This document shows, in pieces, positions 5,995 to 55,648 of a stretch of DNA of 64,000 bases. Every line of letters begins with the position of its first letter. Positions within the stretch are counted from its first letter, which is position 1. Below the pieces are notes generated by a model. That model saw only the letters and a list, made by a program, of their open reading frames with translations, ran no database searches and was not told where the DNA came from. Position numbers and translations under genes: made by a program. The stretch is from Desulfuromonadales bacterium (lineage in GTDB: Bacteria; Desulfobacterota; Desulfuromonadia; Geobacterales; Pseudopelobacteraceae). The DNA lies in the NCBI GenBank assembly GCA_016650295.1, contig JAENWA010000013.1, positions 48,457 to 112,456 on the forward strand, written 5' to 3'.

Positions 5995-6906
5995 TTAATC
6001 AAAATTCAAGACATCTGCTGTAACCGCATCTGAAGCTTGTTTTTCATCTTCTCCTTCAAACTGCAATGAGCGGATTTCCAGCAAGCCTTCGCCGGTGCCA
6101 ACTACCAAAGGTTTTCGAGACAGAATATGTCCCGATTCCCCACTTCCATCAACCGGACAAGCCTGCCAGATAGTTACTTTCTTTCCATCCAGATACGTAA
6201 ATGCCCCCGGATAGGGGTGGGTTACCCCGCGCACCAGGTTGTAGATCTGTACGGCGCTTTTTCCCCAGTCGATACGACCGTCAGCCGGTTTGCGACCGCC
6301 GCAGTAGGTTCCGTCCGCAAGATTCATGGGGATGCGGGATGCCAAACCGTCCCGCAGGAGCGGCCAGGCCCGTGACAGAACCGTCACCGCCGCATCAGTC
6401 ACCTTGACGAATACGTCCTGAGCCGTGTCGGTAAAGGTGATCGGCACCTTTTCCTGATCGACGATATCGCCGGCATCCGGCTTCTCCACCATATAGTGCA
6501 GCGTGGCGCCGGTCTCGGTTTCGCCGTTGATCACCGCCCAGTTAACCGGCACCCGCCCCCGGTATTTCGGCAGACAGGAACCGTGCAGGTTCAGTGCTCC
6601 CCGGAGCGGGGTCGCCAGCACTTCCGATCTGATCATATTGCGGTAGTAAAAAGAAAGCAGGAAGGCCGGGGCGATCTCTTTCACCAGCCGCACGTTTTCA
6701 GGATCATTAATATCGGTCGTCAGGTACGGAATGCAGTTTTGTTCCGCCAGACCGCGCACCGACTGAAACCAGATCTCCTCTGTCGGTGAGTCCTCGTGGG
6801 TGAAGATCAGGCTGATTTCGGCCCCCTGACGCAGCAGTTCCCCGATGCAGCGGTAGCCGACGTTATGATAGGCGCAGACGACGATCTTACTGTTCGTCAA
6901 AGCCAT
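5995..6906 (-). CDS. formyltransferase, homolog of the ArnA N-terminal domain (UDP-Ara4N formyltransferase type)
   Basis: Fmt-like motifs are present (HGSCLPKYRGRVPVNWAVINGETETGATLH). The track ORF extends to 7026, but that extension runs inside arnC. The ATG at 6906 (MALTNSKIVVCAYH...) gives a normal-length protein. Confidence 0.8.
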   Translation of the reverse strand: MALTNSKIVVCAYHNVGYRCIGELLRQGAEISLIFTHEDSPTEEIWFQSVRGLAEQNCIPYLTTDINDPENVRLVKEIAPAFLLSFYYRNMIRSEVLATPLRGALNLHGSCLPKYRGRVPVNWAVINGETETGATLHYMVEKPDAGDIVDQEKVPITFTDTAQDVFVKVTDAAVTVLSRAWPLLRDGLASRIPMNLADGTYCGGRKPADGRIDWGKSAVQIYNLVRGVTHPYPGAFTYLDGKKVTIWQACPVDGSGESGHILSRKPLVVGTGEGLLEIRSLQFEGEDEKQASDAVTADVLNFD

Positions 6907-7825
6907 AGGTCTTCCTGACCACAAAGCGCGGCCGCTTACGCACTTCCTGATAGATCCTGCCGACATATTCGCCGACGATACCGATTCCCATGATGACAAT
7001 GCCGATGAAGAAAAACAGGATTGCAAAGAGGGTGAAGACCCCCTCCACCTCTGCTCCGACGATAAAGCGGCGAATCAGCAGAAACAGGCCGAAAGCCAGC
7101 GCAAAGATGGATGTTGTTATGCCGAACAGTGCAAACAGCTGCAACGGCACAACCGAGAAGCCGGTCATCAGGTCAAAGTTGAGCCGGATCAGCTTGTACA
7201 TCGAGTATTTGCTCTCGCCGGCCGCCCGCTCGGCGTGAGAAACCTCTATCTCGGTCGGATTGGATGCGAAGGTCTGCGCCAGCGCCGGGATAAAGGTGGT
7301 GGATTCGCCGCAGCAGTTGATGTTCTCGATGATGTTTCTGTGGTAGGCGCGCAGCATGCAGCCGTAATCGTTCATCTTCATGCCGGTCATCTTGTTGGTG
7401 GTTATGTTGACGACCCGTGAGGCCAGCTTGCGGAACAGGCTGTCCTGACGCTGCCGGCGAATGGTGCCGACGACATCGTATCCTTTTTCGATCTCGGCAA
7501 CCAGGCGGGGAATCTCCTCGGGCGGGTTTTGCAGGTCGGCGTCCAGGGTAATGACAATCTGCCCCCGCGACATCTCAAAGGCTGCCAGAATGGCCATGTG
7601 CTGCCCGAAGTTGCCGTTGAACTCGACTACCTTGACGCCGGGATACTGCCGGACCATACCTCGCAGGATTTCCAGGGAACGATCACGGGAGCCGTCATTG
7701 GTAAAAATAATCTCAAACGGGCGCCCCGTGCCTTTGGCAACAGGGTATAATCGTTCCATCAGCGGGGCGAGGTTGGACTCCTCGTTGTACACCGGTATGA
7801 CAATACTCAGGTAGGGTTGTTCCAT
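6887..7825 (-). CDS. arnC: undecaprenyl-phosphate 4-deoxy-4-formamido-L-arabinose transferase (GT2, ArnC-like)
   Basis: 312 aa with a GT2 N-terminus (LSIVIPVYNEESNL...DGSRD...DADLQNPPEEIP) and two C-terminal TM helices, as in ArnC. Confidence 0.85.
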   Translation of the reverse strand: MEQPYLSIVIPVYNEESNLAPLMERLYPVAKGTGRPFEIIFTNDGSRDRSLEILRGMVRQYPGVKVVEFNGNFGQHMAILAAFEMSRGQIVITLDADLQNPPEEIPRLVAEIEKGYDVVGTIRRQRQDSLFRKLASRVVNITTNKMTGMKMNDYGCMLRAYHRNIIENINCCGESTTFIPALAQTFASNPTEIEVSHAERAAGESKYSMYKLIRLNFDLMTGFSVVPLQLFALFGITTSIFALAFGLFLLIRRFIVGAEVEGVFTLFAILFFFIGIVIMGIGIVGEYVGRIYQEVRKRPRFVVRKTYGFDEQ

Positions 7826-7840: not shown

Positions 7841-8980
7841 TTATCCTGCCAGTTCTTTGAGCAGTACCGGTCCATAGGCCTTTTTCTGCCATTCCCGCAT
7901 TCCCGCGATACGGTCCAGCTCCTCAACAGAAACAGGATCTGCATCCGCCACCGCTTCCAGCAGCCAGTTGGGCGCCACCACACCCGGTTCAAGCCCCTGC
8001 GAGGAACTGAACTGCTCCCTCCAGGATTTGAGCCGTTTGATCCGCTCCTTGGTCCCATCGGCCGGCTCATCACGACGAAGGCGCGGGAAACGCGGCAGCT
8101 CCTCTTCCGGCAGCGCCAGCGCAGCAGAAACAGCTGCAACAATCTTTTCTCCGAAACGTTGAATCTGGCCCGGCGTCATACCCTTGATGCCGGAGAGATC
8201 AGCCAGTGTCCGGGGTCTTTTTTCCGCCGCTTCCAGAAGGGTCTCCGCCGAAAGGACCTTGAAGGGCGGCCGGTCGAGTTCACGCGCCTGGCGGTCGCGC
8301 AGCTGCAGCAATTCTTCAAGAGCGGCAAGACTGCGGTTCTTGATTTTCCCGGCCCCCTTGCAGGAAAGAAACAACGGGCCTTCCTTTTCTGTTACACGCG
8401 CCTGGCACAGCAGATGGCATTCCTCCTTCAGCCAGTGGAGACGCTCTTTTTTAATCAGTTCCGCCTTAAGCTGGTCGAAAAGCGGGAGCAGGTCAGAGGT
8501 ATCCGCGGCAGCATAGGCCCTCATCTCGGGACTGAGCGGCCGCTTGCTCCAATCAGCCTTCTGATATTTCTTGTTCAGCTCGATCCCGAAACGCGCCTTA
8601 AGCAGCGCTGCCAGGCCGAATTCGGTGATTCCCAGAAAACGTGATGCCAGCATGGTATCGAAAAGATTCCGTATCTCAATGCCGTAATCACGGTGAAGAG
8701 AGCGTACGTCATAGTCGGCACCGTGCATGACGATAAGAATCCGGGGATCACCCAGAGAAGGCGCCAGCGGGGACAGGTCTTTTAAAGCCAGCGGATCAAT
8801 CAGCCAGCTCTCGGAACGGGTTGACACCTGGATCAGGCAGACTTTCTCCTGATAGTGGTGCAGCGAATCCATCTCCAGATCAACCGCAAACTCGGTCTGA
8901 GAACTCAGTATAGCCGCGACTTCCTCCAGTCGCTCCGCCTGGGTAACTATTTCACAATCATGCCGCGTAAAAGGTGTCAA
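7841..8980 (-). CDS. rnd: ribonuclease D
   Basis: 379 aa with a DEDDy 3'-5' exonuclease domain (FAVDLEMDSLHHYQEKVCLIQVS...MHGADYDVRSL) and a C-terminal HRDC-like region. Confidence 0.85.
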   Translation of the reverse strand: MTPFTRHDCEIVTQAERLEEVAAILSSQTEFAVDLEMDSLHHYQEKVCLIQVSTRSESWLIDPLALKDLSPLAPSLGDPRILIVMHGADYDVRSLHRDYGIEIRNLFDTMLASRFLGITEFGLAALLKARFGIELNKKYQKADWSKRPLSPEMRAYAAADTSDLLPLFDQLKAELIKKERLHWLKEECHLLCQARVTEKEGPLFLSCKGAGKIKNRSLAALEELLQLRDRQARELDRPPFKVLSAETLLEAAEKRPRTLADLSGIKGMTPGQIQRFGEKIVAAVSAALALPEEELPRFPRLRRDEPADGTKERIKRLKSWREQFSSSQGLEPGVVAPNWLLEAVADADPVSVEELDRIAGMREWQKKAYGPVLLKELAG

Positions 8981-33024: not shown

Positions 33025-33163
33025 TTCGTATCTTCCCGGCGGGTTCGTCTTTCAGGTAAATCCCTTCGATGGCAAACGAAGAAACCAGCGAACGACGCAT
33101 AAGCCGCTTGCGCTAACCGGATCTTTCAGGTAGGGATTGGTCTCAAGTAGTGACTTTTTCATA
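33025..33163 (-). pseudogene. frameshifted paralog of the VbhA-like small gene at 52879-53070
   Basis: The reverse strand from the ATG at 33163 reads MKKSLLETNPYLKDPV, identical over the first 16 residues to the intact copy. Homology then continues only in another frame (RKRLMRRSLVSSSFAIEGIYLKDE versus RRKMLDRSIISSSAIEGIHITEED). The in-frame reading stops after 37 codons. Confidence 0.6.
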
Positions 33164-33195
33164 GCGGCAGTTTTCCTTGAATTGAGCTGAAACAA

Positions 33196-46330: not shown

Positions 46331-49159
46331 GTGTCACCCACACCTGAACAGGAAGCGCGCATAGAGATCGACCGCATGCTGGTCGAGGCCGGCTGGCTGG
46401 TGCAGGACGTGAAGAGTGTCAACCTGCATGCCGGCCGGGGCGTGGCCATCCGCGAGTTCCCGCTGGAGCGCGGCTTCGGTTTCGCCGATTACCTGCTGTA
46501 TATCGACGGCCGGGCAGCCGGGGTGATCGAGGCCAAGCGGGCCGGCGTGACCCTCTCGGGTGTCGAGATCCAGTCCGACCGTTATACCCAGGGCCTGCCC
46601 GCTTCGCTTCCGGCCTGGTTCCGTCCCCTTCCCTTCCGTTATCAATCCACCGGCGTCGAGACCCGTTTTACCAGCGGCCTTGATCCCGATCCCCGTTCAC
46701 GCGAAGTGTTCTCCTTTCACCGTCCCGAGACCCTGGCCGAGTGGCTGGATACGGCCTGCCGCAGCGTGGAGAGCGCCACCCACCAGCCCGGTGAAGTGGC
46801 TGAACCGGGCCTGATCTGGTCGCCGGACTGCTACCGACAGCGACTGCGACACATGCCGCCCCTGCACAGTGAGGGGCTCTGGCTGGCCCAGTTCACGGCC
46901 ATCGGCAACCTGGAGAAATCCCTGGCCGCCGACCGACCCCGCTCGCTGGTGCAGATGGCCACCGGCTCGGGCAAGACCTTTACCGCCGTCTCCTTCATCT
47001 ATCGCCAGCTGAAGTTCGCCGGTGCCCGGCGGGTGCTGTTCCTGGTAGACCGAGCCAACCTGGGACGCCAGACCCTCAAGGAGTTCCAGCAGTACCAGTC
47101 CCCTTACACCCCCTACAAGTTCTCCGAGGAGTACATCGTCAACCACCTGCAGTCCAGCCGCCTGGACAGCACGGCGCGGGTCAGCATCTGCACCATCCAA
47201 CGGCTCTACTCGATCCTGCGCGGCGAGGAACTGGCCCCGGAGCTGGAGGAGGAATCGCTCTTCGACCATGCCGGCCTCTTCCGCGAGCCACCGCCGGTGG
47301 TCTACAACCCGGCCATCCCGCCCGAGACATTCGACCTGATCGTTACCGACGAGTGCCACCGCTCGATCTACAACCTCTGGCGTCAAGTGCTGGAGTATTT
47401 CGACGGATTCCTGGTCGGCTTGACCGCCACCCCCGGCAAGCAGACCTTCGGCTTCTTCAACCAGAACCTGGTGATGGAATACCCCCACGAGCAGGCCGTG
47501 GCCGACGGGGTCAACGTCAACTACGACGTCTACCGCATCCGCACGCGGATAACCCAAGGGGGCTCAGTCGTGGAGGCCGGACATTACGTGGACCACCGCG
47601 AGCGGGAGACGCGGGCCGTGCGCTGGGAACAGCTGGACGAGGACCTTGCCTACGAGGCGGGTCAGCTCGACCGGGACGTGGTGGCGGTGGACCAGATCCG
47701 CACCGTGATCCGGACCTTTCGCGACAAGGTGCTGACCGAGATCTTCCCCGGCCGCACCTGGGTGCCCAAGACCCTGATCTTCGCCAAGGACGACTCCCAC
47801 GCCGAGGACATCGTCCGCATCGTGCGCGAGGAGTTCGGCAAGGGGAACGACTTCTGCCAGAAGATCACCTACCGCACCACCGGCCGCAAGCCGGAAGAGC
47901 TGATCGCCGAGTTCCGCACCAGCCCCATGCCGCGCATCGCCGTCACCGTGGATATGATCGCTACCGGCACCGACATCAAACCGCTGGAGTGCGTTTTCTT
48001 CATGCGCATGATCCGTTCCCGTTCCTTCTTCGAACAGATGAAGGGGCGCGGGGTGCGGGTGATCAACGATACCGACCTGCAGGCGGTCACCCCCGATGCC
48101 GTGGCCAAGACCCACTTCGTCATCGTCGATGCGGTCGGCGTCTGTGAACAGGACAAGACCGATTCCCGCCCGCTGGAAAAGAGGCCGAGCGTCTCCTTGG
48201 AAAAACTGCTCCAGGCCGTGGCCCTGGGCAATACCGAGAGCGAGGTGGTCTCCTCCATTGCCGGGCGTTTTGCCCGCCTGGAGCGCAAGCTCGATCCGGC
48301 CGGCAAGGCGGAGATCGAGCGGTTGACGGGTGGCAAGGGGTTGAAGGAGCTGACCGGCGACCTGATCGCTGCCATCGACCCGGAACAACAGATCGAGCAG
48401 GCCCAGGCCGATTTCGGCGTGGGTGATCCGACCGTGGAGCAGGTCCGCCAGGCCGGTGTCAGGCTGATCCAGCAAGCGGTTCGGCCGCTCTGTGAGCCGA
48501 AGCTCAGGGAGAAGATCCTGGAGCTGCAGCGTAAGGCCGACCAGATTATCGACACGGTCAGCGCCGACGAGGTGATCGAGGCCGGTTTCGATGCCGATGC
48601 CCTGGACAAGGCCAAGGGACTGGTGCACTCCTTCGAACAGTTCATCGAGCAGAACAAAGACGAGATCACCGCCTTGCAGATCCTCTACAGCCGCCCCTAC
48701 CGCCAGCGGTTGAAGTACGACGAGATCAAGGGACTGGCCGAGATGATCGAACGTCCCCCTTATCTGTGGCGCATCGACCGATTGTGGGATGCCTACGCCG
48801 CCCTGGAAACATCCAAGGTCAAGGGGGCAGGCAGAAGGCGCCTCTGGACTGATATCGTCTCGCTGGTCCGTTTTGCCCTGCATCAAGAGCCGACCCTGGA
48901 GCCGTTCGAGGAGCATGTCCAAGAGAAATTTGCCGCCTGGATTGCCAAGCAGGAGGCCAGCGGGAAGGGTTTCAGCGATGAGCAGCGCTGGTGGCTGGAG
49001 CGGATTCGCGATCACGTCATTGCCAGCCTGGAGATCGGGCGGGATGATTTCGAGTTTACGCCGTTCAAGGAGAACGGCGGGATCGGCAAGGTGTATCAGT
49101 TGTTTGGAGAGGAGTTGTGGGGGATGTTGGAGGAATTGAATGAGGTGCTGGCGGCGTAA
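46331..49159 (+). CDS. hsdR: type I restriction endonuclease subunit R (HsdR, EcoEI-like)
   Basis: 942 aa with a GTG start. It has an N-terminal nuclease region, SF2 helicase motifs (MATGSGKTFTA, DECHRS, TATP) and a long helical C-terminal domain. Confidence 0.9.
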   Translation: MSPTPEQEARIEIDRMLVEAGWLVQDVKSVNLHAGRGVAIREFPLERGFGFADYLLYIDGRAAGVIEAKRAGVTLSGVEIQSDRYTQGLPASLPAWFRPLPFRYQSTGVETRFTSGLDPDPRSREVFSFHRPETLAEWLDTACRSVESATHQPGEVAEPGLIWSPDCYRQRLRHMPPLHSEGLWLAQFTAIGNLEKSLAADRPRSLVQMATGSGKTFTAVSFIYRQLKFAGARRVLFLVDRANLGRQTLKEFQQYQSPYTPYKFSEEYIVNHLQSSRLDSTARVSICTIQRLYSILRGEELAPELEEESLFDHAGLFREPPPVVYNPAIPPETFDLIVTDECHRSIYNLWRQVLEYFDGFLVGLTATPGKQTFGFFNQNLVMEYPHEQAVADGVNVNYDVYRIRTRITQGGSVVEAGHYVDHRERETRAVRWEQLDEDLAYEAGQLDRDVVAVDQIRTVIRTFRDKVLTEIFPGRTWVPKTLIFAKDDSHAEDIVRIVREEFGKGNDFCQKITYRTTGRKPEELIAEFRTSPMPRIAVTVDMIATGTDIKPLECVFFMRMIRSRSFFEQMKGRGVRVINDTDLQAVTPDAVAKTHFVIVDAVGVCEQDKTDSRPLEKRPSVSLEKLLQAVALGNTESEVVSSIAGRFARLERKLDPAGKAEIERLTGGKGLKELTGDLIAAIDPEQQIEQAQADFGVGDPTVEQVRQAGVRLIQQAVRPLCEPKLREKILELQRKADQIIDTVSADEVIEAGFDADALDKAKGLVHSFEQFIEQNKDEITALQILYSRPYRQRLKYDEIKGLAEMIERPPYLWRIDRLWDAYAALETSKVKGAGRRRLWTDIVSLVRFALHQEPTLEPFEEHVQEKFAAWIAKQEASGKGFSDEQRWWLERIRDHVIASLEIGRDDFEFTPFKENGGIGKVYQLFGEELWGMLEELNEVLAA
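49084..49157 (+). repeat. direct repeat copy 1 (3' end of hsdR)
   Basis: 74 nt matching 50313-50386 with 3 mismatches. It encodes the last about 24 codons of HsdR (GKVYQLFGEELWGMLEELNEVLAA). Confidence 0.95.
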
Positions 49160-49248
49160 TAATATAACTGATATATTATATTTGCTGTTGACATTAATAA
49201 TTAATATGTTATTTTTATGTCATAAATAAATAACATGAGAGTTATATT

Positions 49249-49719
49249 ATGACGCCGAAACAGAGACAGGCAGCCCGACAGCAGCTCGACAAGACCTTGA
49301 GCCTGTTCGGTTCTGCAAAAAGAATTCAACCGCCGGTAAAAGGATGGATTCGGGCCGTACGCGAGGTGCTGGGAATGTCTGGTACACAGCTGGCTAAACG
49401 GCTCGGGGTCTCTCAGCCGCGTATCCCGAAACTGGAGCAGGATGAGCTGTCCGGCGCTTTGACCCTGAAAACCATGCGTCAGGCGGCTGAGGCCTTGGAC
49501 TGTGTCTTTATCTATGGACTTGTCCCGCGCACATCACTGGAGGATACCATCAGGGCGCAGGCCCGAAAGGTTGCCGGGGAACGCATGCAGCGGGTATCGC
49601 ACTCCATGCTCCTTGAGTCGCAGGCACTAGGCAAGGAAGAGCAGCGCGCCTCCCTTGACGCTGCCGTTGATGAGCTGGCACGCGAGACGCCGCGAGACTT
49701 GTGGGATTCGAAAGCATGA
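49249..49719 (+). CDS. mobile mystery protein A (XRE-type HTH; TIGR02612-like)
   Basis: 156 aa with the HTH segment GWIRAVREVLGMSGTQLAKRLGVSQPRIPKLEQDE. It is paired with the Fic gene as in the TIGRFAM mob_myst_A/B pair. Confidence 0.75.
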   Translation: MTPKQRQAARQQLDKTLSLFGSAKRIQPPVKGWIRAVREVLGMSGTQLAKRLGVSQPRIPKLEQDELSGALTLKTMRQAAEALDCVFIYGLVPRTSLEDTIRAQARKVAGERMQRVSHSMLLESQALGKEEQRASLDAAVDELARETPRDLWDSKA

Positions 49720-50300
49720 ACTTTGACTACCCGGAAGGGGCAACGCCACTCGACCCGGATGAGGCACAGGGATTGCTGCTCTCCCATATTACCACACGGG
49801 CAGAGCTTGACCGCTGGGAGCAGGAGAACATCACCGAAGCCGAAGTCTGGGCCTTCCGCCGCACCCCGCGTGACATCCTCACCGATGGTTTCATCAAACG
49901 CCTGCATAAACGGATGTTCGGCCAGGTCTGGCGCTGGGCAGGAGAATACCGGACCACCGGCAAGAATATCGGCGTGCCGGCATGGCAGATAGCCACGGAA
50001 CTGCGCACTCTCTGTGCCGATACCGCCGCCTGGCTGGAACATGGCAGCTATCTGCCCGACGAGATCGCCGTCCGTTTCCATCACCGGCTCACGGTGATTC
50101 ATCCTTTTCCCAACGGCAATGGCCGTCATGCCCGGATGATGACCGATATCCTGTTGGTGCATCTGTTGAATCAGCCACGTTTTACCTGGGGAGGCGGCAA
50201 TCTTGTTGATGCCGGGGAGTGCCGCCGGCAGTACATAAACGCACTTCGGGCGGCGGATCGTCATGATTACGGGCCGCTGCTTGAGTTTGTTCGGACGTAG
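49716..50300 (+). CDS. mobile mystery protein B (Fic/DOC family; TIGR02613-like)
   Basis: The Fic core motif is HPFPNGNGRHARMM (HxFxxGNGRxxR, with N in place of the usual D/E). The ATG at 49716 overlaps the upstream stop as ATGA. The track start at 49701 is a GTG. Confidence 0.8.
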   Translation: MNFDYPEGATPLDPDEAQGLLLSHITTRAELDRWEQENITEAEVWAFRRTPRDILTDGFIKRLHKRMFGQVWRWAGEYRTTGKNIGVPAWQIATELRTLCADTAAWLEHGSYLPDEIAVRFHHRLTVIHPFPNGNGRHARMMTDILLVHLLNQPRFTWGGGNLVDAGECRRQYINALRAADRHDYGPLLEFVRT

Positions 50301-50312
50301 GATAAAGAAAAG

Positions 50313-50386
50313 CGGCAAGGTGTATCAGTTGTTTGGAGAGGAGTTGTGAGGGATGTTGGAGGAATTGAATGAGGTGCTTGCAGCGT
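50313..50386 (+). repeat. direct repeat copy 2 (relic hsdR 3' end abutting hsdS)
   Basis: It matches 49084-49157. A G-to-A change creates an in-frame TGA (GEEL*GML), and it ends in GCGTGATGG, overlapping the hsdS start. Confidence 0.95.
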
Positions 50387-51824
50387 GATGGAAAAACATA
50401 ATTTAAAATCTCCCCTTAAGACTAAAATGATTAAGTTTGGGAAGCTATGTAAAGTTCAAGGTGGATTTGCATTCAAAAGCACATGGTATAAAGGAGACGG
50501 AATACCTCTTGTCAGAATTTCGAGCCTTGTAAATAGCACTGTTCAATTTGACGAAAAGACGGTCTTCCTTGATCCCTCGCGATTAAAGGAATACTCCGAT
50601 TTTACTTTAAAAAAGGGTGACACCCTCATTGCCATGTCGGGTGCAACTACAGGCAAAATGGCTGTTTATAGCGACAACCAAGAAGCTTTGCTTAACCAAC
50701 GTGTTGGAAGATTCAAGTTGTTGTCAGAGTTACCAGTTGATCCTAAATATATTTCCTACCTTGTAATCCAACTTCGCGACAGAGTCCTTAAAGATGCATA
50801 CGGCGCAGCACAGCCAAATATCAGTCCCAAACAAATTGAAGATATTGAAGTCCCATATTTCCCTTTGAATGAGCAACGACTGATCGTCGCCGAAATCGAA
50901 AAGCAATTCTCCCGCCTGGATGAAGCCGTTGCCTCACTCAAGCGGATTCAGGCTAATCTCAAACGCTACAAAGCCGCCGTCCTCAAGGCCGCTGTGGAAG
51001 GCAAACTCACCGAACAGTGGCGTAAGGATCACCCCGACGTCGAACCTGCCGACCAACTCCTCAAACGCATCCTCGCCGAACGCCGCGACAAGTGGGAAAC
51101 CGAAGAGCTGGCGAAGATGAAGGCAAAGGGTATAAAGCCGAAGGATGATTCTTGGAAGAAGAAATACAAGGAGCCTGCCTGGCCGGATACGGCCAATCTG
51201 CCGGAATTGCCGGAGGGGTGGGTGTGGGCGAAACTTGAAGCTATTGCTGCACTCAAGGGTGGAATCACGGTAGACAAGAAGCGAAAAGACCCGACTGCGC
51301 GGCTTGTCCCCTATCTCCGTGTTGCTAACGTGCAGAGAGGTTACCTGAACCTAACAGAAATGAAAGAGATAGAGGCTTCTCAATCCGTCATCGAAGAATT
51401 AAGCCTTATCCCAGGTGATATTTTATTTAATGAAGGCGGAGACCGCGATAAGCTTGGTCGTGGCTGGATTTGGGAAGGCCAACTTCCTGAATGTATCCAT
51501 CAGAATCACGTCTTTAGGGCAAGACTCTGTGCCAGCGGTGTTTCAGCAAAGTTGATTTCTTGGTGGGGTAACACATTCGGTAAGGACTATTTTCTTCGAG
51601 CAGGAAAGCAGACAACAAATCTTGCATCCATTAATATCACAAAGCTCAGTGAATTCCCGATTCCACTGATGCCAGAAGCTGAACAACACCAAATTGTGGA
51701 AGAAATCGAGCGCCGTCTCTCCGTCACCGAAGAACTCGAAGCCACCATCGAAACCAACCTCAAACGCGCTGAGCGACTTAGGCAGACGATCTTGCAACAG
51801 GCGTTTTCGGGTGGGTTGGTTTAA
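50385..51824 (+). CDS. hsdS: type I restriction-modification specificity subunit HsdS
   Basis: 479 aa with two target-recognition domains separated by a conserved helical spacer (LNEQRLIVAEIEKQFSRLDEAVASLKRIQANLKRYKAAVLKAAVEGKLT). The C-terminal conserved helix is EQHQIVEEIERRLSV... Confidence 0.9.
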   Translation: MMEKHNLKSPLKTKMIKFGKLCKVQGGFAFKSTWYKGDGIPLVRISSLVNSTVQFDEKTVFLDPSRLKEYSDFTLKKGDTLIAMSGATTGKMAVYSDNQEALLNQRVGRFKLLSELPVDPKYISYLVIQLRDRVLKDAYGAAQPNISPKQIEDIEVPYFPLNEQRLIVAEIEKQFSRLDEAVASLKRIQANLKRYKAAVLKAAVEGKLTEQWRKDHPDVEPADQLLKRILAERRDKWETEELAKMKAKGIKPKDDSWKKKYKEPAWPDTANLPELPEGWVWAKLEAIAALKGGITVDKKRKDPTARLVPYLRVANVQRGYLNLTEMKEIEASQSVIEELSLIPGDILFNEGGDRDKLGRGWIWEGQLPECIHQNHVFRARLCASGVSAKLISWWGNTFGKDYFLRAGKQTTNLASINITKLSEFPIPLMPEAEQHQIVEEIERRLSVTEELEATIETNLKRAERLRQTILQQAFSGGLV

Positions 51825-51839
51825 ATACTGGAGGGTGCA

Positions 51840-52868
51840 TTGAACAACCCTTTTTCAGAAGAAAAACTCGCAAGGTTGTTCGAGTCAGATGCTGCCAGAG
51901 CTGATCGCCTTAAACGACGTGAGAGCACCACGCTCGAACTGAAACAGAATTTCAGCCTGTCACCTGATGCCAAGGTTGAATACGGTCGCACAATGGCTGC
52001 ATTTGCGAACCGAGATGGCGGCTATTTATTGTTTGGAATAAAGGACCAACCGCACCTCTTGTTGGGTATGATCAATGATAGATTCGAGACACTTGACCCG
52101 AGGATTTTATCGCAGTTCCTTGCCGAACAATTTTCGCCAAATATTAACTGGCATCATCACGTACATAACAAAGATGGAAAGCGTTTCGGTGTTATCTACG
52201 TAGCACCAGCAAAACGTAAACCAATCGTTTGTACAAGAAACAACGGCAAGCTGAGAGATGGCGACGTATATTATCGATATCAAGGTGAAACTAGGCTTAT
52301 AGCATCTGCTGAACTTCATGGGCTTATACAAGATCTCATTGACGCCGAAAGGAAGTCATGGCGAGAGTTATTAACCAAAACAGCTCATACAATTCCAAGC
52401 GCAACATATCTTCTGGACACAAATTCAGGCCGTGCAACCGGTGAGCGAGGTACATTTGTAATCGGTGAGCAACTCCTCGAAAAGGTCAAATTCATCGAGG
52501 AAGGACACTTTGAAGAAGGGGGAGAACCGGCATTACGGGTTATTGGTGATGTTGAAGTTGTGAGAACTGAAATGGTCCAGGTACCTCATCCGGTTCCGAC
52601 AGACCCTGCAGTTACTCACCCTTTGCTACAGAAAGATCTAATGGCAGGAATAAATGCGGAGTTTGGGGCGGGGACTGTAAATCAGTTCGACATGCAGTGT
52701 GTTCGGTCCGTACATAACGTAACTACTAATCAAGAATGGTACTATTTGAACACCATTGGATTACATGCACCGCAATACAGCAATACTTACCTTGAGTGGC
52801 TTAAAGAGCAGTTTAGGCAGAATCCAACATTCTTTAACGATGCGCGAATGATACGAAATCTATTTTGA
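51840..52868 (+). CDS. AlbA_2 (Schlafen-type) domain protein
   Basis: 342 aa with a TTG start 5 nt after a GGAGGG Shine-Dalgarno sequence. The N-terminus RESTTLELKQNFSLS...AAFANRDGGYLLFGIKD...YVAPAKRKPIV is typical of the AlbA_2 putative nucleic-acid-binding domain. Confidence 0.65.
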   Translation: MNNPFSEEKLARLFESDAARADRLKRRESTTLELKQNFSLSPDAKVEYGRTMAAFANRDGGYLLFGIKDQPHLLLGMINDRFETLDPRILSQFLAEQFSPNINWHHHVHNKDGKRFGVIYVAPAKRKPIVCTRNNGKLRDGDVYYRYQGETRLIASAELHGLIQDLIDAERKSWRELLTKTAHTIPSATYLLDTNSGRATGERGTFVIGEQLLEKVKFIEEGHFEEGGEPALRVIGDVEVVRTEMVQVPHPVPTDPAVTHPLLQKDLMAGINAEFGAGTVNQFDMQCVRSVHNVTTNQEWYYLNTIGLHAPQYSNTYLEWLKEQFRQNPTFFNDARMIRNLF

Positions 52869-52878
52869 TGTGGAATTC

Positions 52879-53070
52879 TTAGCGGGGAGTATCGGAAGTC
52901 TCTTTCGTGGTCTCTTTCACTGCCCGCTCTTCCCTGAAACGTTGCAGGTCTTCTTCGGTAATATGAATACCTTCAATTGCGCTGGAAGAGATAATGGATC
53001 TATCCAGCATTTTGCGCCTGAGCACAGGATCTTTCAGGTAGGGATTGGTTTCAAGCAATGACTTTTTCAT
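52879..53070 (-). CDS. small VbhA-like protein carrying a Fic-inhibitory SxxxEG motif
   Basis: 63 aa: MKKSLLETNPYLKDPVLRRKMLDRSIISSSAIEGIHITEEDLQRF... The segment SSAIEG fits the (S/T)xxxE(G/N) alpha-inh motif of class I Fic antitoxins. The family call is by eye. Confidence 0.4.
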   Translation of the reverse strand: MKKSLLETNPYLKDPVLRRKMLDRSIISSSAIEGIHITEEDLQRFREERAVKETTKETSDTPR

Positions 53071-53112
53071 AGAGGCAGTATACCGAATCCGACGATATTT
53101 TGCACCAGAAAT

Positions 53113-53164
53113 GCCATTTTAGCTCAGGTGCTAGAGCACATCACTCGTAATGATGAGGTTCAAT
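53113..53164 (+). pseudogene. truncated tRNA-Thr(CGU)-like fragment
   Basis: It has a 5' acceptor GCCATTT, a D arm GCTC-AGGTGCTA-GAGC and an anticodon arm CATCA-CTCGTAA-TGATG. Only AGG precedes a TTCAATTCC T-loop-like piece, and there is no 5' T-stem and no 3' acceptor. Confidence 0.7.
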
Positions 53165-53207
53165 TCCCCTTTAGCTCAGTTGGTAGAGCAGGTGGCTGTT
53201 AATCAAC
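53165..53207 (+). pseudogene. truncated tRNA-Asn(GUU)-like 5' half
   Basis: It has TCCCCTT-TA-GCTC-AGTTGGTA-GAGC-A-GGTGG-CTGTTAA-TCAAC, with one mismatch in the anticodon stem. No variable or T arm follows. Confidence 0.65.
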
Positions 53208-53232
53208 AGGAAAAATTTGAAGGACTTCGCAC

Positions 53233-53877
53233 ATGATCATTTTCCTCGACGAATCTGGCGATTTGGGCTTTGACTTTAGCAAGCCGAAGACATCCAGAAA
53301 GTTCGTTATTACTCTTCTCGTTTGTGAAAATGTTGAAGCAATTGAAGGGTTCCGTCGTGGCGTTCGCAGGACCTTGAAAAACAAGCTTAACAACAGGAAG
53401 AACAGATCACAGGAGTTGAAAGGTACCAATACTACTCAGGTCATCAAGGAATATTTTTACCGTCATGTATCGCCTGATGGCTGGCAAATCTATTCGGTAA
53501 TTCTGAATAAAAGCCGGGTGTACGATAATCTTCGTACAAAGCTTGGAAAGAAGAAGCTTTACAACTTTCTGGCCCGGTTTCTTCTGGAAAAGATTGATCT
53601 TTCAAAGGCCGGCAATACCGTCAACCTGATTATGGACAGGTGCAAGAACAAAGAGGAGATCAAAGACTTTAACTCCTATGTAGAAAACCAGCTACAGGGA
53701 TTACTGCCGCTGGATATCCCACTATTCATAACCCACGAAATGTCACATAACAACCCTGGCTTGCAGGCTGTAGATCTCTTTTGCTGGGGAATCTTCAGAA
53801 AACACGAGGGAGAGGATGAAGAATGGTACAGGGTGTATCGTTCGGCCATTGCCTACGAAGGGGAGTATCTGAAATAG
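53233..53877 (+). CDS. DUF3800 domain protein
   Basis: 214 aa. The N-terminal IIFLDESGDLGF (the conserved DE motif of DUF3800) and the overall size fit the family. Confidence 0.7.
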   Translation: MIIFLDESGDLGFDFSKPKTSRKFVITLLVCENVEAIEGFRRGVRRTLKNKLNNRKNRSQELKGTNTTQVIKEYFYRHVSPDGWQIYSVILNKSRVYDNLRTKLGKKKLYNFLARFLLEKIDLSKAGNTVNLIMDRCKNKEEIKDFNSYVENQLQGLLPLDIPLFITHEMSHNNPGLQAVDLFCWGIFRKHEGEDEEWYRVYRSAIAYEGEYLK

Positions 53878-54007
53878 ACAATAAAAAAGACGGCCCCTGT
53901 TACGTCTATTATCCCGAGGCTCATGGCCAACCGATGGAGGGGAGCACCTCAGGCACGTAACAGGATTTACCCGTCTGTTAAGACTGTATACCTGATAAAA
54001 TTTAACT

Positions 54008-54151: not shown

Positions 54152-55648
54152 ATGACCCCAGCGGCAATCGTACAAAAACTCTGGAACTACTGCAACGTCC
54201 TGCGCGACGACGGAATGAGCTACGGCGATTACGTCGAGCAGCTCACCTTCCTGCTCTTCCTCAAGATGGCCGACGAGCGGACGAAGAAACCCTACAGCCA
54301 GACAAGCCCGGTTCCGGCTGGCTATGACTGGCCCAGCCTGCTGAAGAAGGACGGCGACGAACTCTTCGACCACTACCGCCACACTCTGGAAAAACTGGGA
54401 CAGGAGAAGGGGCTGCTGGGACTGATCTTCGGCCGCGCCCAGAACAAGTTCCAGGACCCGGCCAAACTGCGCCGTCTGCTGGTGGACCTGCTGGACAAGG
54501 AAAACTGGTCGATCATGAGCGCCGACGTCAAGGGGGAGGCCTACGAGGGGCTTTTGGAGAAGAACGCCCAGGACACCAAGAGCGGCGCCGGGCAGTACTT
54601 TACCCCGCGTCCGCTGATCCAGGCCATTGTGGATGTCATGGCGCCCAGGCCGAAGGAGACGATCTGCGACCCGGCCTGCGGCACCGGCGGCTTTCTGCTG
54701 TCGGCCTTTACCTATGTCAGCGACCCCAAGCATTACAAGCTGGACCGGGACCAGAAGCGATTCCTGGAAACCGAGACCCTGCGCGGCTGGGAATTGGTGC
54801 ACGCCACGGCACGGCTCTGCGCCATGAACATGATGCTGCACGGCATCGGCGGCGAGGCGCTCCCCATCGAGGCGGGCGTTGATTCGCTGGCTTCCGATCC
54901 GGGCGAGCGCTTCGATATCATTCTGACCAACCCGCCCTTCGGCAAGAAGAGCAGCACAACCATCATCGGCGCGGACGGCAAGGCCTACAGCGAAAAGGAG
55001 ACCATCGAGCGGGATGATTTCTGCGCCACCACCTCCAACAAGCAGCTCAACTTCATGCAGCACATCAAGACCCTGCTCAAACAACACGGCCGCGCCGCCG
55101 TGGTGGTGCCGGACAACGTGCTCTTCGAAGGCGGTGCGGGTGAAACAATCCGTCGCAAGCTGCTTCAGGAGTGCGACGTGCACACCCTGCTGCGCCTCCC
55201 TACCGGTCTGTTCTATGCCCAGGGGGTCAAGGCCAACGTGATCTTCTTCGACAAGAAACCGGCCAGCGAGACACCCTGGACAAAGAAGCTCTGGATCTAC
55301 GACCTGCGCACCAACCTGCACTTCACCCTCAAGACCAACCCGCTCAAGCGCACCGACCTGGAAGAGTTCGTGGCCCTCTACAATCCGGCCAACCGCCATG
55401 AGCGCAGCGCCACCTGGAGCGATGCGACCCCCGCTGGCCGCTGGCGGTCCTACGACTACGCCAATCTGATGGCCCGCGACAAGGCCAGTCTGGACATCTT
55501 CTGGCTGCGGGACGAATCCCTGGAGAATTCGGACAACCTGCCCGAGCCGGGTGTGATCTGCCGCGACATGATCGTTGATCTGGAAAGCGCTCTGGAACAG
55601 CTGCGGCTGATCGCGGAGGATGTGGGTGAAGAACTCGATGAGAGCTAG
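54152..55648 (+). CDS. hsdM: type I restriction-modification methyltransferase subunit HsdM
   Basis: 498 aa with an HsdM N-terminal domain (KLWNYCNVLRDDGMSYGDYVEQLTFLLFLKM), a SAM motif (DPACGTGGFL) and the catalytic NPPFG. Confidence 0.93.
   Translation: MTPAAIVQKLWNYCNVLRDDGMSYGDYVEQLTFLLFLKMADERTKKPYSQTSPVPAGYDWPSLLKKDGDELFDHYRHTLEKLGQEKGLLGLIFGRAQNKFQDPAKLRRLLVDLLDKENWSIMSADVKGEAYEGLLEKNAQDTKSGAGQYFTPRPLIQAIVDVMAPRPKETICDPACGTGGFLLSAFTYVSDPKHYKLDRDQKRFLETETLRGWELVHATARLCAMNMMLHGIGGEALPIEAGVDSLASDPGERFDIILTNPPFGKKSSTTIIGADGKAYSEKETIERDDFCATTSNKQLNFMQHIKTLLKQHGRAAVVVPDNVLFEGGAGETIRRKLLQECDVHTLLRLPTGLFYAQGVKANVIFFDKKPASETPWTKKLWIYDLRTNLHFTLKTNPLKRTDLEEFVALYNPANRHERSATWSDATPAGRWRSYDYANLMARDKASLDIFWLRDESLENSDNLPEPGVICRDMIVDLESALEQLRLIAEDVGEELDES

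Follow-up and report, generated by a model that had tools for sequence, protein, structure and literature searches.

A duplicated hsdR 3′ end around a mob_myst A/B cassette in a type I restriction-modification operon: a probable case of insertion with long target duplication

Introduction

Insertion with long target duplication is a category that was defined by Nobusato, Uchiyama, Ohashi and Kobayashi (2000; Gene 259:99). Furuta, Abe and Kobayashi (2010; NAR 38:2428, PMC2853133) described such insertions, with target duplications that exceed 30 bp and vary in length, and without mobility genes. Here we analyze a structure of this kind in a 64,000-nt stretch of DNA of a Desulfuromonadales bacterium (assembly GCA_016650295.1, contig JAENWA010000013.1, positions 48,457 to 112,456). 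The whole stretch is referred to as the window, and all coordinates are window positions. In it, a cassette encoding the mobile mystery proteins A and B (mob_myst_A and mob_myst_B) lies between hsdR and hsdS of a type I restriction-modification (RM) operon, and is bracketed by two copies of the hsdR 3′ end. With the described cases this locus shares (i) repeats of more than 30 bp and of variable length around a short insert (<20 kb) devoid of a mobility gene, (ii) a related genome with a single-copy empty site and (iii) a repeat that spans a translation stop or start, so that the target genes are not disrupted. Cases of insertion into an operon-like cluster have been recorded as well (PMC2853133). 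In the earlier cases the cargo consisted of RM genes, and DNA breakage by the cargo itself was suspected, whereas here the cargo is a toxin-antitoxin-like pair and an RM operon is the target. A further difference is that the same junction was hit repeatedly by different cargos.

Accessory toxin-like genes between hsd genes are likewise known from the PrrC/RloC-type anticodon nucleases and from PADLOC candidates in type I RM operons. Several papers describe systems embedded in such loci, dealing with their gene content and not with the anatomy of the junctions. In the literature, the term "mobile mystery protein" was found only in passing mentions in annotations.

The structure reported here probably arose long ago by insertion with long target duplication at the hsdR-hsdS junction, where the two genes are translationally coupled, and would belong to a surviving class of recombinase-independent illegitimate insertions.

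Results and Discussion

The direct repeat and the inserted segment

A comparison covering the 9 kb that surround the cassette revealed a direct repeat of 77 nt, with 73/77 identical positions. The 74-nt version of the repeat (49084-49157 and 50313-50386) contains exactly three differences, the number given in a preliminary description of this DNA. These are located at repeat positions 36 (G>A, changing TGG to TGA), 67 (G>T) and 70 (G>A), while the fourth difference is the stop codon (TAA in copy 1, TGA in copy 2). The 77-nt repeat is far beyond chance, because the runner-up in the surrounding 9 kb, the second-largest direct repeat, has only 26 nt at 77% identity.

The coordinates and open reading frames (ORFs) agree with the roles assigned earlier to the two copies, i.e. 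copy 1 as the end of hsdR and copy 2 as a derivative with a TGG to TGA stop and a conserved stop/start overlap (Table 1). The in-frame TGA of copy 2 is located at 50347-50349. This copy carries the hsdS Shine-Dalgarno sequence GAGGTG (50370-50375) together with the GTGA overlap; at its end, GCGTGATGG, a GTG that overlaps the old TGA serves as the start of the hsdS ORF. Its last ~20 nt are the part that is common to the remnants present in other loci.

The two 74-nt copies are separated by 1155 nt, comprising an 88-nt leader, mob_myst_A, mob_myst_B and a 12-nt spacer. Such a content, with a TTGACA-containing AT-rich leader followed by the mob_myst A/B pair, had been proposed before and was confirmed by the scores of the two proteins, which lie well above the curated cutoffs (205.6 bits versus 122.6 of TIGR02612 for A, and 297.3 bits versus 124.4 of TIGR02613 for B). 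Only the HTH (helix-turn-helix) and Fic proteins are encoded within the 1.15-kb insert, in which no recombinase, transposase, integrase or nuclease was identified. The view that the repeat is unlike a short transposase-type target-site duplication also stands, since it is far too long and the insert contains no recombinase. A transposon or insertion sequence was rejected as the identity of the segment: there is no transposase, the inverted repeats are the operator palindromes of the leader, and the length of the duplication is not fixed.

Table 1. Coordinates of the features of the RM operon and of its inserts.
Feature	Position	Strand	Description	Matches
hsdR	46331-49159	+	type I restriction subunit, EcoAI/EcoEI kind, 942 aa	NCBIfam PRK11448, restrict_EcoAI; Pfam EcoEI_R_C, ResIII, Helicase_C, HSDR_N
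repeat copy 1	49084-49160	+	functional last 25 codons and TAA stop of hsdR	
cassette leader	49161-49248	+	88 nt, 84% A+T	
mob_myst_A	49249-49719	+	HTH_3 (XRE-type) protein, 156 aa	TIGR02612 (3e-61); Pfam HTH_3
mob_myst_B	49716-50300	+	Fic-domain protein	TIGR02613 (5e-89); Pfam Fic; PADLOC PDC-S04 (7e-22)
spacer	50301-50312	+	12 nt, A/G-rich, GATAAAGAAAAG, between the B stop and copy 2	
repeat copy 2	50313-50389	+	non-coding remnant of the hsdR 3′ end	
hsdS	50385-51824	+	specificity subunit, 479 aa	Pfam Methylase_S; PADLOC Specificity_I (5e-109)
cargo block of the hsdS-hsdM gap	51840-53981	mixed		
AlbA_2/Schlafen protein	51840-52868	+	within the hsdS-hsdM gap	
63-aa SSAIEG ORF	52879-53070	-	within the hsdS-hsdM gap	
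tRNA-like element	53113-53197	+	not called by ARAGORN	RF00005 (31.2 bits; gathering score 29)
DUF3800 gene	53233-53877	+		
DUF3800-V RNA	53884-53981	-		Rfam (45.8 bits; gathering score 37.4)
hsdM	54152-55648	+	methyltransferase subunit, 498 aa	Pfam N6_Mtase, HsdM_N; PADLOC MTase_I (2.5e-197)

Age and reality of the duplication

The closest relatives of mob_myst_B (92-95% protein identity) are encoded by the comparison loci L081 and L082/L083/L084, which originate from other samples and assemblers than the window. All of them carry the cassette between the hsdR 3′ end and hsdS, with both repeat copies, and their cassette DNA is 87-91% identical to that of the window. The duplication predates the divergence of these loci, because the diverged relatives contain both copies; it is older than ~9-13% DNA divergence, i.e. 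old and not fresh. The preliminary description had regarded the structure as a clean footprint of cassette entry, which does not agree with this age, nor with the mosaic nature of the copies: the variants of copy 1 and copy 2 are shared as a mosaic across lineages in this small sample, a pattern that would be compatible with gene conversion or allele exchange. In L082-L084 the right joint is 14 nt shorter than in the window, and copy 2 begins directly at the B stop; the 12-nt spacer, absent from these loci, has been kept in L081. The hsdR genes of L082-L084 contain internal deletions, with the cassette intact, and L082 shows the decay of an hsd locus around the cassette in progress.

The window is derived from a metagenome, and short-read graphs break at the repeat, which might raise the suspicion of an assembly artefact. 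The probability of such an origin is negligible and the artefact was ruled out. Both copies are present in the independent loci L081-L084, and a shortened right copy in L126-L128 (different samples and assemblers, 87-91% nucleotide identity), and the empty sites are single-copy. Moreover, in Logan unitigs of four permafrost-metagenome runs, every joint between a repeat and unique DNA is covered with copy-specific bases, each copy being tied to its own flank. No excised form of the cassette was seen in the Logan contigs and unitigs of the four runs, contigs being blind to rare forms.

A different arrangement was observed in L126, L127 and L128, where a unit (6001-7379 in L128) is formed by the mob_myst cassette, preceded by 205 nt from the 3′ end of hsdR and followed by another 21-33 nt of this end. 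This unit is placed between SGNH-lipase-like and DUF167/yggU-like genes, is followed by a REP-like hairpin and is accompanied by no other hsd sequence. Either the cassette moved together with pieces of its old flanks, or the hsd locus decayed around an addictive module.

The hsdR-hsdS junction in related operons

Metagenome contigs were scanned with the HsdR C-terminus, which yielded 44 loci of the same R-S-M family. As anticipated in the preliminary description, many relatives with an uninterrupted junction were found, among them L087, L091/92, L094/95, L105, L109, L113-115, L120 and L123/124. These empty sites have a single copy of the sequence, in which the hsdS GTG overlaps the hsdR TGA (GTGA) and the Shine-Dalgarno sequence GAGGTG lies inside the last hsdR codons; one of them, L087, shares 87% nucleotide identity with the window over hsdR. 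The uninterrupted overlap in these related loci is the reason to read the structure of the window as an insertion with target duplication.

The outgroups in a tree of the hsdR 3′ region have empty junctions. A derived clade (11-16% DNA divergence) includes junctions occupied by mob_myst, RAYT, Phd/ParE, AlbA_2 and AAA_14/DUF4143 ATPase genes, as well as empty ones, and outside this clade VapBC (L102, L116) and RhuM plus Fic (L107) are found. In one hsdR clade, the number of different cargos at the junction is seven or more. A remnant of the hsdR 3′ end, 19-207 nt in length and flush with the hsdS start, is retained at about two thirds of the junctions that carry an insert. The lengths are (i) ~19 nt with Phd/ParE (L088) and with AlbA_2 (L089), (ii) 22 nt with the AAA_14/DUF4143 ATPase (L090), (iii) 23-24 nt with RAYT/REP (L085, L086, L121), (iv) 56-69 nt with VapBC (L102, L116), (v) 72-78 nt with mob_myst (the window, L081, L082-84) and (vi) 111 and 207 nt with RhuM and Fic (L107).

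The 3′ border of the remnant is always fixed at the hsdS start, and its 5′ border is variable. The minimum shared by the remnants is GAATGAGGTGCTGGCGGCGTGA, i.e. the Shine-Dalgarno sequence with the GTGA stop/start overlap. The left joint is always placed at or within the hsdR stop codon. With toxin-antitoxin cargos, this codon is changed to TAA or TAG; correspondingly, the stop of copy 1 is TAA or TAG in cassette-bearing loci and TGA, overlapping the hsdS GTG, at the empty sites. The remnants lose their reading frame, through a stop in copy 2 of the window and through a frameshift in L116. Nucleotide drift has affected the working hsdR end of L088 and L121 (ELNETLAA), with the ancestral nucleotides retained in the remnant, as expected if the two copies have split the coding and the initiation functions.

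Unrelated cargos at this junction carry the same kind of hsdR-3′ remnant; the duplication is therefore a property of the junction, not of the cassette. The original interpretation is thus partly supported: it was right in kind (recombination, not transposition) and wrong in attribution, since the duplication reflects the site and not the cassette.

Integrase-mediated insertion typically leaves direct repeats of tens of bases that rebuild the target gene's 3′ end, and the two copies could be read as attL and attR of a site-specific integration, mediated by a tyrosine or serine recombinase acting in trans or by an integron-type system. Elsewhere, integrases are the upstream neighbors of 3 out of 70 mob_myst cassettes, and the cassette of L040 is located among integron-integrase remnants. 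This explanation is very improbable. There is neither an integrase in or beside the hsd locus of the window nor a tRNA at the site, the repeat length differs between cargos at the same site (19-207 nt), and cassettes elsewhere are devoid of hsdR-like sequence and of attC-like elements, their homology stopping at the B stop. An integron gene cassette was also rejected as a candidate: only 12 nt separate the B stop from copy 2, the homology ends at the stop, and there is no integrase ORF. Of the two routes named in the preliminary description, recombination is therefore retained as the right kind of process, and nothing was found in favor of an integron-type cassette.

Two further observations were made at this junction. 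A RAYT-type Y1 transposase (weak match to Pfam Y1_Tnp) with flanking REP-like hairpins (…tcgcccctac…) is present in four loci (L085, 3469-4256; L086, 6076-7029; L112; L121), and a similar hairpin follows the cassette in L128. The conserved remnant contains the octamer GCTGGCGG (49147-49154), which is one base off the Chi octamer of E. coli, though the Chi sequence of the host may differ. An exact GCTGGTGG is found at 48987-48994, ~100 nt upstream of the repeat. The window contains more of both octamers than expected (12 versus 4.3 and 2.6, codon usage being uncontrolled). All seven copies of GCTGGTGG before 46.8 kb are on the minus strand (7/7), and all five after 48.9 kb are on the plus strand (5/5).

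Flanking repeats at other mob_myst loci

The comparison set for the cassette consisted of 80 species-representative genome loci; 76 of these, the window excluded, were testable for flanking repeats. Control placements were shifted within the same neighborhoods as the real cassettes, and the subset with full flanks comprised 53 real and 42 shifted placements. A significant direct repeat across the cassette was detected at ~10/76 loci and was absent at ~65/76. With full flanks, the frequency was 6/53 for real cassettes versus 2/42 for the controls, i.e. there was no enrichment. The expectation that other mob_myst loci would also be flanked by duplications was accordingly not borne out, and the duplication is not a hallmark of mob_myst cassettes.

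Genuine duplications of gene ends were found in four cases: 51 nt of a tsaB-like 3′ end in L017, 93 nt of the comEC 3′ end in L044, 77 nt of the hsdR 5′ end in L051, and the window. Among the remaining repeats, that of L003 (249 nt) includes the 3′ end of a tRNA-Leu gene and is associated with tandem tRNA-Leu islands, those of L040 contain an integron-integrase remnant, and those of L018 are non-coding and hairpin-rich. Several duplications at other mob_myst loci also bracket extra genes.

The homology between the cassette of the window and those of unrelated genomes starts at 49158-49163, just past the hsdR stop, and ends at the stop codon of B, with different flanks in every locus. No common genomic context was found for the cassette, whose neighbors are extremely diverse, from housekeeping genes to those of conjugation, phages and BREX. 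The sharpness and conservation of its borders across dozens of unrelated contexts, as well as gene-end duplications that abut the cassette or a small island containing it (L017, L044, L051, L003), could be taken as signs that the cassette has a mobility mechanism of its own, which generates long target duplications at gene ends. We consider this improbable. The lack of enrichment of flanking repeats, together with the fact that unrelated cargos leave the same remnant at the hsdR-hsdS junction, disfavors a cassette-specific mechanism; in addition, the domains of A and B are limited to HTH and Fic, neither a nuclease nor a recombinase being present, and several of the other duplications bracket extra genes too.

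Origin of the duplication and roles of its copies

In homology-facilitated illegitimate recombination and in Campbell-type single-crossover events, DNA is inserted beside a homologous anchor, target sequence of any length may be duplicated, and no dedicated recombinase is needed. The first of these processes was reportedly treated by de Vries and Wackernagel in 2002. The insertion in the window may be likened to these processes. In our view, the duplication was most likely generated when DNA in which the cassette already followed an hsdR 3′ end underwent homology-facilitated illegitimate recombination, which fits because the left joint is fixed at the stop, with a new stop supplied, and the right joint is variable. 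Other compatible sources of the duplication would be a long staggered break or a template switch.

The inserted unit is a self-contained cassette of ~1.15 kb with sharp borders, extending from the first operator to the B stop codon. It would have brought its own promoter, three phased operators, the HTH protein A and the Fic toxin-like protein B, with A probably repressing the promoter and inhibiting the toxin through a Fic-inhibitory-like helix. In the empty state, the hsdS GTG overlaps the hsdR TGA and the ribosome-binding site of hsdS lies inside the last hsdR codons, and an insertion at this overlap would be harmful to one or the other gene if there were only a single copy of the shared segment. 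Copy 1 keeps the HsdR C-terminus, now with its own TAA; copy 2 retains the Shine-Dalgarno sequence and start context of hsdS, which would keep hsdS translatable, and its remaining part is decaying (in-frame TGA). The joints would be placed at the hsdR stop on the left and 77 nt upstream of the hsdR stop on the right. Selection may maintain this arrangement, as HsdR needs its C-terminus and hsdS needs an initiation region lying inside hsdR. Later, cargos may have spread, or been swapped, among related hsd loci by ordinary homologous recombination in conserved hsd sequences. The mosaic of copy 1 and copy 2 variants, observed in a small sample, is compatible with such exchange.

The strongest rival explanation regards copy 2 as the leftover of a second, foreign hsdR that came with the present hsdS, through module exchange or through tandem loci followed by deletion; the cassette would then simply lie between the resident hsdR and an imported hsdR′-hsdS module. 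Copy 2 of L081 has the TGGCC allele of the L087/L091 hsdR ends, unlike its own copy 1, and the remnants of L088 and L121 differ from the resident hsdR end. Furthermore, the three copies of L107 are just 64-70% identical at the protein level, and the target-recognition domains of hsdS have clearly been exchanged between otherwise similar loci. This origin is nevertheless unlikely, as no locus contains a longer intermediate (of the 2.8-kb gene, 207 nt at most remain), the remnants always directly abut the cargo, and the copies share 93-97% identity with the resident end in the window, L082 and L128. It would still require an illegitimate joint, and thus partly collapses into the homology-facilitated variant of the explanation that we prefer.

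Several points weigh against that preferred explanation, the insertion with long target duplication: (i) a donor and a recipient sufficiently close for the original joints to be read were not found; (ii) a ribosome-binding site requires less sequence than is present in the longer remnants (56-207 nt); (iii) no remnant is detectable at about one third of the insert-bearing junctions (L096, L100, L103, L110, L112, L118), which implies that hsdS can gain another initiation region; (iv) the TGGCCG allele of copy 2 in L081 is otherwise seen in the hsdR ends of other loci, and fits the import of an hsdS module with a piece of foreign hsdR at least as well as duplication in situ; and (v) the part of copy 2 in the initiation of hsdS translation is one that we infer from sequence.

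A bolder possibility, and a doubtful one, is that the duplicated hsdR 3′ end/hsdS initiation region constitutes a recombinase-free, RecA-dependent cassette platform of type I RM operons. Cargos bracketed by the same target-derived repeat could loop out as circles, re-insert in related empty junctions and stack. If true, the platform would be functionally an integron without an integrase, L107 (three repeats, two cargos) representing an array, and it could explain the embedding of defense and toxin genes in RM operons. The order repeat-cargo-repeat-cargo-repeat in L107 resembles integron cassettes in that promoter-proximal single cargo units are separated by a repeat; unlike integrons, these loci have neither intI nor attC, and the repeat is a target-derived coding sequence of no fixed length. 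L107 (6740-8422) is the sole array-like case found. Its three hsdR 3′ copies (ending at 6759; 7127-7237; 8216-8422) alternate with two cargos. One is a RhuM-like fragment that is fused to the remnant, the other a Fic gene accompanied by a small antisense ORF.

The mob_myst A/B pair

The leader of the cassette contains a promoter-like sequence, TTGACA-16-TATTTT, at 49188-49215 (-35 at 49188-49193, -10 at 49210-49215). It also contains three operator-like palindromes (ATAAY-N6-RTTAT) at 49164, 49197 and 49230, exactly 33 nt apart, the middle one of which overlaps the -10 region. These are the only three matches to the palindrome in the 64-kb window, versus 0.01 expected, and the 33-nt phasing was also found in 24 related loci. 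The palindromes are probably operators bound by the HTH protein A.

The start of mob_myst_B overlaps the stop of mob_myst_A by 4 nt (ATGA), and A is located directly upstream of B in 80/80 genome loci, the pair being always intact. This organization is like that of class I Fic modules (VbhT/VbhA, FicT/FicA), in which a small upstream gene overlaps the Fic gene. The distant relatives of mob_myst_B in the PDB are FICD, VbhT and NmFic, and B shares the Fic core with VbhT and NmFic. Its Fic motif is HPFPNGNGRHAR. An Asn that is invariant across the family occupies the canonical D/E position, and the other motif positions are present; the family motif is thus HPFxNGNGRHxR, in contrast to HxFx(D/E)GNGRxxR of class I Fic proteins.

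The C-terminal part of mob_myst_A contains a conserved SH[ST]MxLExQ motif, with the Glu present in at least 90% of 77 homologues and A, N, S or G at the last position. It resembles the inhibitory helix of class I Fic modules, [S/T]xxxE[G/N], from which it differs in that the residue following the Glu is mostly A, N or S, not G or N. Unlike the class I antitoxins, mob_myst_A has 156 aa and an N-terminal XRE-type HTH. No solved structure was found for comparison of its Fic-inhibitory-like motif. Based on these predictions, mob_myst_A may be regarded as a putative antitoxin and autorepressor and mob_myst_B as a putative toxin, and the two most likely constitute an autoregulated toxin-antitoxin-like pair. 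PDC-S04, matched by mob_myst_B, is a PADLOC candidate family and not a tested system, and no defense activity is known for mob_myst A/B.

Homologues of mob_myst_B (~56% identity) were identified on 255 plasmids, including those of Agrobacterium (100), Rhizobium (51), Coxiella (19), Sinorhizobium (17) and Vibrio (17), and none were found among 50,697 phage records. The B protein of the window has no exact-sequence match on record.

The host operon and its further cargo

The host operon is a type IB (EcoAI/EcoEI-like) RM operon, in which HsdR, HsdS and HsdM are all present, apparently intact, with the expected domains (Table 1). Further cargo is located between hsdS and hsdM, and the operon of the window thus shows a multi-site cargo platform. 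The contents of this gap vary: AlbA_2 and DUF3800 genes in the window, a Gp49/HTH (HigBA-like) pair in L081 (3168-3880), a RhuM-Fic fusion in L082 (10821-11798) and nothing in L094. In other loci, a duplicated 5′ fragment of hsdM (residues 1-83 or 1-23) precedes DUF3800 between hsdS and hsdM (L114, 7461-8674; L115, 10462-11675; L105, 7220-7447). This duplication mirrors the hsdR-3′ remnant at a different junction of this operon family.

The DUF3800-V RNA of the window is encoded directly 3′ of the DUF3800 gene, on the opposite strand, and the tRNA-like element directly 5′ of this gene. The RNA also adjoins DUF3800 in L086, L096 and L114, and a DUF3800 remnant in L089; the tRNA-like match was seen again in L082.

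The SSAIEG sequence of the 63-aa ORF perfectly matches the Fic-inhibitory motif [S/T]xxxE[G/N], and the ORF gives a weak PADLOC match to the N-terminal part of SoFic. From its sequence, it looks like an orphan antitoxin of the VbhA/FicA type. A small antisense ORF of this kind is placed beside the Fic gene in L107, and the homologous region near the RhuM-Fic gene in L082. The 56-nt segment 53024-53079 has a second copy at 33116-33171 (91%).

Conclusions

The insertion in the window is a real but old example of an already known kind of insertion. It extends insertion with long target duplication from RM genes as the cargo to RM operons as the target. The duplication does not reveal the mobility mechanism of the "mobile mystery" pair, an inference that is tempting but wrong. 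What the related loci add is a recurrent cargo hot spot, with at least seven types of cargo at the same junction in a shallow clade. Toxin-antitoxin and defense genes inside RM operons are usually described by their gene content alone; the anatomy of the junction adds a testable rule, namely that at an overlapping stop/start, the insertions that persist duplicate the shared segment, the upstream gene keeping its end and the downstream gene its ribosome-binding site.

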